A DNA stretch of 64,000 bases from an uncultured Bacilli bacterium (lineage in GTDB: Bacteria > Bacillota_I > Bacilli_A > RF39 > UBA660): NCBI GenBank assembly GCA_947625505.1, contig CANQON010000001.1, positions 28,950-92,949 of the forward strand, written 5' to 3'. This document shows positions 49,737 to 62,839 of this stretch, one piece after another; position 1 is the stretch's first letter, and every line of letters begins with the position of its first letter. The notes under the pieces were generated by a model. That model was not told the origin of the DNA. It saw only the letters and a program-made list of their open reading frames with translations, and searched no databases. Position numbers and translations under genes: made by a program.

Positions 49737-51329
49737 ATGAACGAAAAGAAAACAGTATTATTTTTAATGAATGGATTTGGAACTGAATCCGCTAAATCAT
49801 TTGAAGTATATTCTAAAGAAGTAATGCCTACTTTTGATACACTTATTAACGCTTATCCATTTAAATTATTATTTGCATCAGGTGAATTAATAGGCGCTAA
49901 TAAAAATGAAGTATCAAATTTTAAGACAGGATACTATAACTTTAGTAGTTTTGGACATCCAAGTAAAAAAGAAGATGTTTTAAATAGTAAAATAGCTGCT
50001 AATGAATTTAATAATAATCCTGTTATCAATAATAGTATTGATATAGCTGTTCAAAATAAGTCTAATTTACACATTGTATTTACTTTAGGTGATAAGGTAA
50101 ATAATGAAAGATATGAACATTTAAAACAATATTTAGAATTAGCTGTATCTAAAAACGTTGGTAAGATATATGTACACCTTATTTTAGGTGATAGTAGTAC
50201 AAGAGGATTAAAAATAGGAAGTCAATGCTTAACTAATTTTAAAAATAGAGTTTTACGTTATTATCCTCAAATTATTGTTGCATCACTAGCAGGAAGAATG
50301 TATGTAAAAAATGGATCTGCTAATGATATTGCTAACTATTATCGTATGATGGTTAGTGCCGTAGGAGAAATATGGACAGATTACGAAGCAACTTTAACAA
50401 AAAAATATGAACACGGTATGAATGATGATAATATGATTGCATTCTTAACTATACGTGAAAATATGTTACTTGAAGGTGACAGCATCTTTATGTTTAACTA
50501 TAGTAACAATATAGCAAGACAATTTTTAGATGTTGTTATAAATCCAAAAAAGTATTTTCCAACTAGTAATGTACCAGAAAATATTCATATTAACTCTTTA
50601 TTTACTATTAATAATTTGCCTCAAATACCACGTGCTTTTGAGGATGCTGTACCAGATACTTATTTATTAGATAAAATACCTGATACAAAAAAAGTCTTAA
50701 TTATGGCTACTAAAGAGCGTATACCTTATGTTAGTAAAACATTAAATGGATTTAGGCCTTCATTTAAAAGCAATGTTAGTGTATGGCCAATAGAAGATCG
50801 TAAAAAGAGATTTCAAAGCATTAGTCAGTATTTAGCTGCCTATATTAATCAAGATATATATGATTTAATAATCGTTGATTGTGAATTATATGATGAAGGT
50901 GCTGATGAACGTACGATAGCTAAAGTAATAGATAACATGAAAGAATTAGATAAATGTTTAAATATTACTTATCATCGTGCTATGGATAAGAATTATCGTT
51001 TAATAGCAACTTCATTATATGGAATTAAACAAAGATTTAAGTTAACAGCAACTATGGAATTAGTTGATTTATCACAAAAGACCCCATTCTTACTTGTTGA
51101 TAAAGAAATAAGAAGATTAGATATAGTCTTTAAAAATGAGGGAACATTTATTGATGTAGCTCGTTTAATTGCGATATCTTTTGGTTCTCAAATGTCAAAT
51201 AACTTAATTCAAATAGAAACAGTCGAAGAAAAGAAAAGTAGTAACAAAAAGAAATATATTATATTAGCTATACCAATAGCTATCTTATTAATATTGGTTA
51301 TAGCGTATATTTATATGATGTATTTTTAA
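49737..51329 (+). CDS. catalytically degenerate iPGM (GpmI) paralogue with a C-terminal TM anchor; first gene of the T7SS-like locus
   Basis: It aligns along its length with the window's own GpmI: VLFLMNGFGTE vs VLCIMDGVGER; LLFASGE vs LLEASGT; LHIVFTLGD…KIYVHLILGD vs LHIMGLISDGG…NIYLHLCTDGRD; LIIVDCELYDEGADERTIAKVIDNMKELDKC vs [31 protein letters not shown]. The catalytic Ser motif and the metal ligands DH/GH/DHG are lost. It ends with a hydrophobic helix, KKYIILAIPIAILLILVIAYIYMMYF. Confidence 0.7.
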   Translation: MNEKKTVLFLMNGFGTESAKSFEVYSKEVMPTFDTLINAYPFKLLFASGELIGANKNEVSNFKTGYYNFSSFGHPSKKEDVLNSKIAANEFNNNPVINNSIDIAVQNKSNLHIVFTLGDKVNNERYEHLKQYLELAVSKNVGKIYVHLILGDSSTRGLKIGSQCLTNFKNRVLRYYPQIIVASLAGRMYVKNGSANDIANYYRMMVSAVGEIWTDYEATLTKKYEHGMNDDNMIAFLTIRENMLLEGDSIFMFNYSNNIARQFLDVVINPKKYFPTSNVPENIHINSLFTINNLPQIPRAFEDAVPDTYLLDKIPDTKKVLIMATKERIPYVSKTLNGFRPSFKSNVSVWPIEDRKKRFQSISQYLAAYINQDIYDLIIVDCELYDEGADERTIAKVIDNMKELDKCLNITYHRAMDKNYRLIATSLYGIKQRFKLTATMELVDLSQKTPFLLVDKEIRRLDIVFKNEGTFIDVARLIAISFGSQMSNNLIQIETVEEKKSSNKKKYIILAIPIAILLILVIAYIYMMYF

Positions 51330-51411
51330 TTTTATCTTTTAATTAAAAATGAAATGTGATATCATTATAGAGTAGAAGACTATAAGATAAAGGAATATAG
51401 AGGGTGAGAGT

Positions 51412-60900: not shown

Positions 60901-62595
60901 GTAATTAAAAATGTTAATGATATTCATCGTAAAGAAGATTCTGTATCAAAAGGGGAACAATTAACAAATATTGTTAAATACTTATCAGAGTTAGCTGAAA
61001 AAGAGAATTATCATCCACATCGTTTATGGTTAAATAAAATACCTGATGTTATTTATGTAGATGAGTTAAAGAAAAAATATAATTATAAACCAAAACGTTT
61101 TGTTATGGATTCTATAATAGGGGAGTATGATGATCCATCTAATCAAAAACAAGATGTTGTTAAATTAAACTTATCTAGTGATGGCAATGCTTTAATATAT
61201 GGCTTACCTACTACAGGTAAAGAAAACTTATTAGCAACCATTATCTATTCAATGGTAACAGATCATAGTGTAGATGAATTAAATATGTATATTATGGATT
61301 TTGGAGCTGAAACATTACGTATGTTTCAAAATATTCCTCATATAGGTGATTTAGCTTACATTGAAGATGAAGAAAAAATAATTAAATTATTAGAATTAAT
61401 CGATAATGAAATAGAATTACGTAAGAATTTATTTGTTGACTATGCAGGTAGTTATATTGATTATTGTACGAATAGTGGAAATACTTTACCTACAATTGTT
61501 ATAATGATTAATGGTTATGAAAACTTCCAAGAAAATTTTGGTAAATATGAAGATAGTCTTTATACACTTATTCGTGAAAGTAATAAATATGGTATTTATT
61601 TTATAGTAGCGACATCTGTTAATAGTTGTATTCGTAGTCGTTTACTTCAAAACTTTAATAATCGTTTATCTATGCAACTATCTGATCCAATGGATTATCG
61701 TATTTTACTTAATGCTCCAAAAGATTTAAATCCTGCTCATAATTATGGACGTGGTATTGTTCGTATTAATGATACAGGTTTTGAATTCCAATCAGCATTT
61801 ATAACAGATAAAAATAGAATAGGTGACGCTATTAAGATATTAAGTGCACGTTTAAGTAATTATTATAAACGTCGTGCTCCTAAGATACCAATTTTACCTA
61901 AAAAGGTAATTGATAGTAGTTTACCAATACCTAAGTCATTAGATCAGGTACCTATTGGTGTATTAAAGAAGAATGTAGAACCTGCTTATTATGATTTTGA
62001 ACGTAGTAAATATACAACAATTGGTACTAATATCTTAGATGATAAATTGCCATTCTTTAATGCTTTATTACGTAAATTAAGTGCTATACCAAATTTAAGA
62101 ATTAAAGTAATTGATGCTTATCAAGCATATCAACCACAGATACCGAATGTTACTGTTTATAGTAAAGATTTTGATCAAGTTATTAACATGATGTATCAAG
62201 AACTTGATATTGAAGAAAAACAAAATTATAAAACATTATATTTTGTAGTTGGTATTGGACAGTTAAAAGTAAGATTAAGTAAAGAAGCTCAAACTAAATA
62301 TATGACTATTTTAGGATCATTAAAGAATTTTATTAATAGTTATTTTATCGCTATTGATAGTATTCAAGCTTTACGAAGTCTTGAGTTAGATAGTTGGTAT
62401 CGTAATAATGTCTCTAGATCTGATGGTATATGGTTAGGTGATGGCTTTGGTAGTCAAAGTATTATTAAAGTTTCTAACTTTACTTTAGAAGATCGTAAAG
62501 TAAGCTATCCAGAAATTGCTTATATTGCTAATAAGGGAAAATATGAATTTGTTAAATATATGATTGAAGAGGAGACTGATCAAGATGAGGAATAA
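58000..62595 (+). CDS. essC: T7SS FtsK/SpoIIIE-family ATPase EssC/YukB, paralogue 2 (about 1532 aa)
   Basis: Same architecture as paralogue 1. D1 is nearly identical ([52 protein letters not shown]), while the FHA region, the D2 P-loop (GLPTTGKEN) and the C-terminal D3 have diverged. RBS TAGGGGT precedes the ATG at 58000, which aligns with the paralogue-1 N-terminus (MLVSLI vs MLISIM). Confidence 0.9.
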   Translation: [1531 protein letters not shown]

Positions 62596-62839
62596 AGTAT
62601 TAGTCGAAATTACTGTTCCCGAAATAGATCAAACATATAATGCTTTTTTACCTATTAATAAAAAAGTAGGGAATATACTAGTCTTGATTACTAAAGCTAT
62701 AAGTGATATGAGTAATAATAATTATCAAGTATCAACTACTAATGCTTTATATAATCGTATAACAGGTGAAAAATATAACACAGATGATTTAATACGTGAG
62801 ACAAATATTAGAAATGGTACTAAATTAGTATTATTATAG
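62585..62839 (+). CDS. second YukD/EsaB-like ubiquitin-fold protein, translationally coupled to essC-2
   Basis: It is a paralogue of 51412–51663 (VLVEITVPEIDQTYNAFLPINKKVG…ETNIRNGTKLVLL). Its start overlaps the essC-2 stop by 11 nt. RBS GAGGAG lies inside essC-2. Confidence 0.65.
   Translation: MRNKVLVEITVPEIDQTYNAFLPINKKVGNILVLITKAISDMSNNNYQVSTTNALYNRITGEKYNTDDLIRETNIRNGTKLVLL

Follow-up and report, generated by a model that had tools for sequence, protein, structure and literature searches.

The 64,000 nt window analyzed here (positions 28,950 to 92,949 of contig CANQON010000001.1, assembly GCA_947625505.1, from an uncultured Bacilli bacterium) harbors a plus-strand gene cluster that probably encodes a functional, reduced type VII secretion system (T7SS) resembling the T7SSb of Bacillota, in a lineage of uncultured low-GC, spore-forming gut Bacilli; the phosphoglycerate mutase (iPGM) paralogue encoded directly upstream would be only a neighbor. 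The cluster comprises genes for two EssC-type ATPases, two ubiquitin-like proteins (TsxB1 and TsxB2), two relatives of the WXG100 family, and a DUF4176 protein. A preliminary description of the stretch had credited it with every signature element of a Bacillota T7SS. This was wrong, since EssA, EssB, and EsaA are absent, which that description had overlooked. Its view that the architecture is non-canonical still holds, but for partly different reasons: the missing EssA, EssB, and EsaA set the locus apart, while neither the inclusion of the iPGM paralogue nor a duplication of the ATPase is supported.

The two EssC calls of the preliminary description were followed up by the profile search it had proposed, and both open reading frames (ORFs) exceeded the cutoff of the EssC model TIGR03928 (778 bits), with 1006 bits for EssC1 and 973 bits for EssC2. 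Both proteins also matched the Pfam families FHA and FtsK_SpoIIIE. The best solved relative of both was YukB of B. subtilis (417 bits for EssC1 and 411 bits for EssC2), followed at a distance by T. curvata EccC (about 200 bits) and mycobacterial EccC5 (about 120 bits). Since the sequence alignment to YukB begins only around the transmembrane (TM) region, residues 1–250 of EssC1 were modeled with AlphaFold2. The predicted local distance difference test score (pLDDT) of the model was about 90–97 over residues 1–200 and then dropped. Its top matches in the PDB were the tandem FHA structures of Geobacillus EssC (5fwh), YukB (9qks, entry 9qks_H), and S. aureus (1wv3), each aligned over about 221–225 columns, and the Pfam FHA match is located at residues 110–171. 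The model thus assigns the tandem-FHA fold of T7SSb EssC to the N-terminus of EssC1. The Arg, Ser, and Asn residues that bind phosphothreonine in canonical FHA domains are not kept, and T7SSb FHA domains likewise lack conserved phosphothreonine-binding residues (PMC11217815). Among the P-loop domains, D1 keeps Walker A (GSTGSGKS in EssC1) and Walker B (DEF in EssC1) intact in both EssCs. D2 carries a GxxGxGK-E motif (GSGKE in EssC1), and D3 has no Walker A motif.

EssC1 and EssC2 share 41% identity overall; by region, the identity is 76% for D1, 42% for D2, 22% for D3, and 32% for the FHA part. A distance tree placed EssC1 beside the single EssC of the related loci L004, L017, and L019 as well as the second EssC of L036, and EssC2 grouped loosely with a lineage whose gene always has a ubiquitin-like gene directly behind it (L006/L036a, L007a). 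Both lineages co-occur in L036/L037 and L007 in another order, namely EssC, a ubiquitin-like gene, four small or WXG-like genes, and the second EssC. The succession of an essC gene and directly thereafter a ubiquitin-like gene recurs in L006, L007, L036, L038, and L039. Because both lineages recur together in related loci, the possession of two EssCs is a recurrent state of the clade and not a recent tandem duplication; essC1 and essC2 are old, deep paralogues. The ATPase had been described as duplicated; two copies are indeed present, but they belong to two separate lineages.

Neither ubiquitin-like protein matched any Pfam or NCBIfam model, the YukD model included. A profile of the family gave only chance-level matches to PDB sequences (best, the ubiquitin-like region of Mpe1, E = 0.4), with no YukD among them. 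The family comprises 568 clusters in the protein database, and 0 of the 120 listed have a Pfam annotation. The AlphaFold model of the 83-aa protein TsxB1, built on 28 family members, had a pLDDT of 91 and the beta-beta-alpha-beta-beta order of a ubiquitin-like beta-grasp. The best Foldseek match was the ubiquitin-like domain of EccD from ESX-5 (7np7/7npt), and bacterial and eukaryotic ubiquitin-like proteins as well as EccD1 came next. The protein ends with KLILL and has no Gly-Gly. At the level of the modeled fold, TsxB1 is predicted to belong to the TsxB/EsaB/YukD class. TsxB2 is 46% identical to TsxB1. The two YukD proteins of the preliminary description were in this way supported by the fold of the 83-aa model, but neither could be assigned to YukD by the Pfam and NCBIfam searches.

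The 86-aa protein matched Pfam WXG100 (E = 7e-4) and NCBIfam ESAT6_2 (E = 9e-7) over its full length, both below the cutoffs, and its W46-x-G48 motif is invariant in 9 of 9 orthologues. When its profile was compared to the PDB, EsxA of group B Streptococcus and of Geobacillus were best, over the full length and with marginal E values of 0.03–0.19. The 92-aa protein has no WxG motif and reached Pfam WXG100 with a sub-cutoff E of 0.0028; its gene is kept at the same position in 9 loci. In Ca. Aphodocola, two neighboring genes encode homologues of the pair, both with Pfam WXG100 hits on record: L040_96a is homologous to the 86-aa protein (E = 4e-14) and L040_95, with the motif SWQGDDA, to the 92-aa protein (E = 2e-17). 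Because of this homology, both proteins are taken as putative WXG100 relatives that form a non-identical pair, and the Esx protein with a WxG motif and its partner without one that had been described are thus both present.

The DUF4176 gene was likewise recognized correctly (PF13780, E = 8e-29). A 96-bp tandem repeat with 4.5 copies (52621–53050) encodes the Pro/Met-rich tail of its product. On a near-identical contig the protein has 283 aa compared to 315 aa here, that is, one 32-aa unit fewer. Across species the tail varies from about 207 to 526 aa, but most species share its C-terminal end (DPNNQNM or similar), reminiscent of a flexible linker that carries a docking motif. Proteins with a DUF4176 domain act as chaperones specific for toxins; the gene of the large form lies between LXG toxin and Lap genes, and that of the small form among immunity genes (PMC12478183). 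In the window, no LXG toxin or immunity gene is adjacent, and the extra length is a disordered Pro-rich repeat and not that of the large form. The protein differs from both described forms by its fusion to a variable Pro-rich repeat and by being encoded by a fixed core gene.

The preliminary description let the locus end at position 62839 and thereby missed a convergent minus-strand operon that continues it beyond the end of the window. The operon encodes six helical proteins of about 100 aa; three of the six genes lie inside the window (62888–63835), and the other three, past its end, encode proteins of 106, 102, and 107 aa. Two of the six proteins have a WxG motif, among them the 102-aa protein, and the 107-aa protein matched ESAT6_2 with E = 5e-7. 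For the 104-aa protein encoded at 63192–63506, both TIGR03930 (E = 0.002) and Pfam WXG100 (E = 0.018) stayed below the cutoff, and it is related to the WXG100 protein L040_95 (E = 7e-11). The 103-aa protein encoded at 62888–63199 had no Pfam or NCBIfam family match. Beyond the operon, about 3 kb past the 3' end of the window (L028, 6891–8851), genes for a 256-aa protein with an N-terminal anchor and a 391-aa single-TM protein follow, the latter with a weak glucosaminidase match. Homologues of both were found only in T7SS-positive loci (L036/37, L004, L017), and they may constitute a peptidoglycan-hydrolase accessory comparable to EssH of S. aureus. We also considered them as equivalents of EssB or EsaA and dropped this idea, as no family supported it. 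Further downstream, asnB, an ATP-grasp gene, alr, a sigma factor gene, and spoIVA follow.

EssB/YukC, EsaA/YueB, and EssA had no Pfam or NCBIfam match in the cluster, in the rest of the window (ORFs that were scanned or had precomputed Pfam hits), or in the 10 kb beyond, so that about 74 kb around the locus was covered. Precomputed Pfam hits likewise showed no EssA, EssB, or EsaA in about 15 related loci, which represent six architectures and were covered together with their 10 kb flanks. The intergenic gaps inside the cluster are all shorter than 100 nt, which leaves no space for a hidden gene such as that for EssA, and in the neighborhood of the locus only the EssCs, PolC, DnaE, and IleS exceed 900 aa. 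No LXG toxin, immunity pair, or other obvious effector was seen at the locus. We conclude that EssA, EssB, and EsaA are not part of the system at this locus, and that this is its truly unusual feature. Bacillota T7SS subtypes without the three proteins are documented, and B. anthracis secretes a WXG100 protein without them (PMC11217815); function in their absence therefore has a precedent.

Between two species (L004 and L017), the ratio of nonsynonymous to synonymous substitution rates (dN/dS) was 0.02 for EssC, 0.05 for the ubiquitin-like protein, 0.04 for the DUF4176 domain, and 0.12–0.17 for the esx pair. With these values, intact ORFs, and conserved D1 Walker motifs, the system looks functional. 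The core order of ubiquitin-like gene, WxG-less WXG100 relative, WXG100 gene, DUF4176, and EssC is the same in nine species-level loci, of which L007 has no DUF4176 gene. Ca. Aphodocola also has a ubiquitin-like gene and two WXG100 genes, then further genes and EssC. The first 1200 residues of EssC1, N-terminus included, aligned end to end with most of the best 150 representatives of 50%-identity clusters, at about 35–61% identity. The few relatives with a name are labeled 'Bacilli bacterium' or 'Firmicutes bacterium' or belong to Ca. Aphodocola excrementigallinarum (Bacilli incertae sedis at NCBI). By its sequence relatives, the system is widespread in uncultured gut Bacilli.

We compared the locus to the ten subtypes T7SSa–j, which were defined from RefSeq neighborhoods by Garrett, Higginson & Palmer 2024 (PMC11217815), by component set and published description. 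The set found here, with TsxB, a tandem-FHA TsxC, DUF4176, and a pair of WXG100 relatives, corresponds to no subtype among the ten. The earlier statement that it differs from the ess and yuk operons was borne out and can be extended to eight further subtypes (PMC11217815). A literature search found no later subtype ('T7SSk'). None of the genes for a kinase, a PPM phosphatase, a DUF6382-FHA protein, TsxI, TsgL, an EspG-like protein, or an AAA+ protein is present in the cluster. With T7SSb the locus shares an ATPase of the EssC/YukB type, whose tandem FHA domains lack phosphothreonine-binding residues and which has two TM helices and, with D1 as the sole canonical one, three P-loop domains. Also in common are WXG100 proteins, a DUF4176 accessory protein, and a free-standing ubiquitin-like protein that has no Gly-Gly and, by its modeled fold, is of the YukD/EsaB type. 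The locus differs by its lack of EssA, EssB/YukC, and EsaA/YueB, by a non-identical WXG100 pair with one member lacking WxG, whereas T7SSb has a single gene for an EsxA homodimer, by two full-length membrane EssC paralogues, and by the absence of LXG toxin and immunity genes. Furthermore, the ubiquitin-like protein is too divergent for the Pfam YukD model, and DUF4176 has a long Pro-rich repeat tail and is encoded by a fixed core gene, while it is toxin-linked in T7SSb.

In its simplicity, T7SSg of Acetivibrio and Paenibacillus comes nearest, with two non-identical WXG100 proteins, one ubiquitin-like protein, and an ATPase (PMC11217815). However, its ATPase TsgC has no FHA domains in contrast to the tandem FHA found here (PMC11217815), T7SSg includes the DUF5050 beta-propeller protein TsgL and adjacent Tad pilus genes, none of which are present in the window or its flanks, and DUF4176 is not listed for it. 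The nearest ATPase type is that of T7SSf from Clostridia, which likewise has WXG100 and YukD-like proteins, an ATPase with FHA in which the phosphothreonine motif is poorly conserved, and low-GC anaerobic Bacillota as hosts. The PPM phosphatase TsfF, the DUF6382-FHA membrane protein TsfJ, and the AAA+/TadZ-like TsfV of this subtype have no counterparts in the cluster; the sole PP2C gene is the housekeeping gene stp beside prkC, 10 kb upstream. The components looked for as markers of T7SSe, T7SSf, and T7SSj together also included the kinase TsxD and the large Ig-like TsxI, and neither was found in the cluster. Two essC genes in one locus are known from the T7SSb of E. faecalis OG1RF, but there EssC2 lacks TM segments and EsaA and EssB are present, while both copies in the window are full-length and membrane-anchored.

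From established knowledge of EssC/YukB and YukD, the following mechanism can be proposed. EssC hexamers would form both the membrane channel and the motor, with D1 hydrolyzing ATP and the degenerate D2 and D3 recognizing cargo. The ubiquitin-like protein would bind EssC and promote its assembly, as YukD binds YukB and controls assembly (PMC12637312). The 92-aa and 86-aa proteins would be exported as a heterodimer of helical hairpins, and the DUF4176 domain would act as a cargo chaperone. In the present locus, a second, divergent EssC with its own ubiquitin-like partner and the six-protein convergent operon accompany this five-gene core. Since the motor domain is nearly identical in the two paralogues but D3 shows only 22% identity, they most likely serve different cargo sets: EssC1 would handle the pair encoded upstream, and EssC2 the small proteins encoded downstream.

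The preliminary description had taken the dead phosphoglycerate mutase as the first gene of the locus. The protein is indeed a dead iPGM: it scored 107 bits with TIGR01307 (cutoff 331), and all seven catalytic and metal-binding residues (the catalytic Ser and six metal ligands) are replaced. The positions align with D12, S62, D403, H407, D444, H445, and H462 of canonical iPGM, in the numbering of the B. stearothermophilus enzyme. The true gpmI (46495–47988), in the same block upstream, retains all seven. The dN/dS of the paralogue was 0.03, and it looks like a catalytically dead, tail-anchored pseudoenzyme under strong purifying selection that is independent of the T7SS. A scan of 185,579 species genomes retrieved 25 loci, all from metagenome-assembled genomes (MAGs) and nearly all labeled as uncultured Bacilli, and in about 20 of these the block of gpmI, a 188-aa ORF, engB, a 146-aa ORF, and the iPGM-like gene is conserved. 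T7SS genes follow 3' of the block only in L003–L007, L017, and L019, plus L036. In L008–L016, L020, L022, and L023, unrelated genes, for example for ABC transporters, extend up to spoIVA, and these roughly 12 loci of the sister clade have no T7SS gene within 10 kb of the block. The placement of the iPGM-like gene as the first member of the locus is not supported.

The T7SS-positive genomes are also closer to each other in ftsW, a histidine kinase, trigger factor, and EIIB; they form a clade, and the divergence of the iPGM-like protein follows this phylogeny. Co-transfer with the T7SS, as an explanation for the sharp fall of its identity in T7SS-negative genomes, was rejected, since ftsW, the histidine kinase, trigger factor, and EIIB fall in parallel. 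The same EssC/ubiquitin-like family occurs without an iPGM-like neighbor in four other locus types: between dnaA and rpmH (L034/35), upstream of engB (L038), beside a signal-peptidase-like gene (L039), and in Ca. Aphodocola (L040). Most likely, the dead paralogue is only a conserved housekeeping neighbor, beside which the T7SS cluster was inserted in a variable region ending at spoIVA.

Several points weigh against this interpretation. One concerns the iPGM-like protein itself, which could be a true component, a membrane-anchored cytoplasmic pseudoenzyme on which the FHA domains of EssC dock in place of the EssB pseudokinase. The preliminary description had something similar in mind. The gene lies directly upstream on the same strand in all nine loci of the clade, a spacer of only 3 nt (L007) or 23 nt (L019), and of 82 nt in the window, separates it from the ubiquitin-like gene, and in the window no terminator hairpin was found between the two genes; short gaps and the missing terminator make read-through transcription likely. 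The strong purifying selection in spite of the loss of all catalytic residues and the topology, a large cytoplasmic domain with one TM helix as in EssB, also fit such a role. Nevertheless, we consider a functional link to the T7SS improbable, and the replacement of EssB equally so: the gene sits in the same gpmI-engB block of about 12 sister-clade species with unrelated genes downstream, its divergence parallels that of housekeeping genes, an iPGM-like gene is missing from the surroundings of the same EssC and ubiquitin-like family in L034, L038, L039, and L040, and the ubiquitin-like family (568 clusters) is much more diverse than the iPGM-like one (about 69 clusters).

Further objections concern the T7SS itself. 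The WXG100 calls depend on sub-threshold profiles and transitive homology. Secretion, the transcription units, and the specificity for cargo are predictions, and no toxin or other obvious effector at the locus points to a biological role. In T7SSb, the tandem FHA of EssC docks onto the EssB pseudokinase, so an FHA-bearing EssC without EssB implies another partner. Equivalents of EssA, EssB, and EsaA may also sit elsewhere in the genome or exceed the reach of Pfam and NCBIfam. In that case the machine could be an ordinary T7SSb with essA, essB, and esaA at another site. EssC passes the T7SSb-trained TIGR03928 and has YukB as the closest solved structure, its N-terminus has the fold that binds EssB in T7SSb, and around the locus the search for the three genes covered only about 74 kb. 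But in described T7SSb loci these genes cluster with essC, none of the related loci or their flanks has them, and Bacillota subtypes without them are on record (PMC11217815), which makes a dispersed T7SSb unlikely. Still less probable is that the cluster is decaying or inactive, a leftover from a T7SSb whose membrane partners were lost. Decay would agree with the absence of a toxin effector and of three components without which the systems of S. aureus and B. subtilis do not work, but not with the dN/dS of 0.02–0.17 on all genes, the two ORFs of about 1540 codons, which are intact and keep the catalytic motifs, or the maintenance of the reduced set, with most of the best 150 cluster representatives aligning with EssC1. 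That the ATPases move DNA in conjugation or chromosome segregation, and not protein, is suggested by the name of the Pfam domain (FtsK_SpoIIIE) and by the JGI label 'DNA segregation ATPase' on one relative. We give this almost no credence, because the three-ATPase-domain EssC passes the EssC equivalog cutoff while the FtsK model gave only 66 bits (cutoff 1566), the genes are linked to WXG100, ubiquitin-like, and DUF4176 genes, and no relaxase or other conjugation genes are present.

A reduced T7SSb-like system thus remains our preferred reading. A more far-reaching version can be put forward only tentatively, and we would not expect it to hold in full: EssC and the 83-aa ubiquitin-like protein would be a self-sufficient translocon in a genome that lacks EssA, EssB, and EsaA altogether, an eleventh and minimal T7SS subtype, in which the two EssC paralogues, in separate or mixed hexamers, sort two sets of small helical cargo. 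If this were true, the contact between FHA and EssB would be no general requirement of FHA-bearing EssCs. Work on the T7SS of Bacillota assumes a core of six proteins, and the unit seen by recent cryo-EM in B. subtilis consists of YukB, YukC, and YukD. A large, conserved family that has the same tandem-FHA EssC and a YukD-like protein but shows no YukC/EssB, EssA, or EsaA at the locus raises the issue of which parts a working channel needs and offers a small system for reconstitution. The paired EssCs, with a conserved motor and divergent cargo-binding ends, represent a natural experiment on substrate choice. Since RefSeq contains mostly cultured organisms, and since nearly all that is known of this lineage comes from metagenomes of the rabbit, mouse, chicken, and sheep gut, T7SSa–j is probably an incomplete catalogue. 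For annotation, the dead iPGM cautions that a conserved upstream neighbor may mimic an operon member.

The preliminary description had divided the locus by internal terminators and promoters into one substrate module and two ATPase modules, and this could not be confirmed. A consensus scan detected no terminator where 3.4 were expected, and promoter-like sites were less frequent than in shuffled sequences. The terminator scan needs G+C-rich stems and overlooks A/U-rich hairpins, which were seen by eye and by folding, together with U-runs, after DUF4176 and essC1; with z = -1.4 each, they were not significant. A TGnTATAAT-like element lies 3' of each hairpin. The extended -10-like site with TG at 53203–53230, which overlaps the hairpin after DUF4176, is a possible internal promoter, and TGGTATAAT is found at 57963–57971, past the hairpin after essC1. 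A split into three modules is plausible from these elements. The only significant hairpin is the pair between the convergent operons, for which 0 of 200 shuffles folded as well.

The features of the locus are listed in Table 1. All ORFs named in the preliminary description were verified on the plus strand between 49737 and 62839, with positions and strand given correctly. The start of tsxB2 overlaps the 3' end of essC2.

Table 1. Features of the T7SS-like locus and its borders (positions refer to the window).
Feature	Position	Strand	Evidence
iPGM-like paralogue, 530 aa, predicted dead, C-terminal TM anchor	49737..51329	+	TIGR01307, sub-cutoff
tsxB1, 83-aa ubiquitin-like protein (predicted YukD/EsaB-type fold), first gene of the conserved core	51412..51663	+	model and Foldseek
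esx-like, 92-aa helical protein without WxG, putative WXG100 relative	51680..51958	+	transitive homology
esx-like, 86-aa putative WXG100 protein, W46-x-G48	51967..52227	+	sub-cutoff profiles and homology
DUF4176 protein, 315 aa, Ltc-type chaperone domain (residues 9–83) and Pro/Met-rich repeat tail	52244..53191	+	PF13780
A/U-rich hairpin and U-run 3' of DUF4176, possible weak terminator	53194..53222	+	fold, z = -1.4
essC1, 1544-aa T7SS ATPase, tandem FHA, 2 TM helices, three P-loop domains	53267..57901	+	TIGR03928
A/U-rich 13-bp hairpin and U-run immediately 3' of the essC1 stop	57901..57929	+	fold, z = -1.4
essC2, 1531-aa paralogous T7SS ATPase; alternative GTG start at 57994 (1533 aa)	58000..62595	+	TIGR03928
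tsxB2, second ubiquitin-like protein, 84 aa from ATG at 62585; ORF open from 62564 (91 aa)	62585..62839	+	
Hairpin pair between the convergent operons, putative bidirectional terminator	62838..62894	.	-15.7 kcal/mol, z = -4.2
103-aa small protein, last gene of the convergent operon	62888..63199	-	homologue beside T7SS in L019
104-aa WXG100-like protein, WxG motif (GWQGDDA)	63192..63506	-	TIGR03930 and Pfam WXG100, sub-cutoff
104-aa helical protein, same convergent operon	63521..63835	-	homologue in L019

The window has a G+C content of about 28%, and a tRNA scan and an Rfam scan of its 64 kb gave no match. Contigs near-identical to it are present in several ENA metagenome assemblies. The upstream 49 kb harbors housekeeping genes, namely nusA, infB, rbfA, gpr, der, lysS, ackA, polC, dnaE, sepF, and ileS, and further rlmN, stp, prkC, rsgA, rpe, tig, and ftsW. 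The stp/prkC pair (PP2C phosphatase and PASTA Ser/Thr kinase) at 38282–40778, between rlmN and rsgA and 10 kb upstream of the cluster, is the usual housekeeping pair and not the kinase/phosphatase pair of T7SSc, e, or j. Three conserved ORFs had no Pfam or NCBIfam match: 475 aa (25856–27283), 188 aa (47981–48547), and 146 aa (49235–49675). The latter two flank engB in all related genomes.

Some of the related loci showed additional features. In L019 (MAG UBA5578), three small genes are placed between DUF4176 and essC (13300–14204), two of which look by eye like putative DNA-binding or regulator-type genes, and a gene for a BspA-like leucine-rich-repeat lipoprotein follows essC. In two unrelated contexts (L034, 8119–14891; L040, 4009–14659), a DUF87/HerA-like ATPase of 585–660 aa is encoded next to the genes for EssC and the ubiquitin-like protein. 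In L034/L035, the ubiquitin-like and EssC genes stand as a pair alone at the replication origin between dnaA and rpmH, with no WXG100 gene nearby. In L038 (1–3680), a protein of more than 2794 aa without a Pfam match is encoded just upstream of a module of DUF4176, EssC, and ubiquitin-like genes and is a candidate for a giant T7SS substrate.

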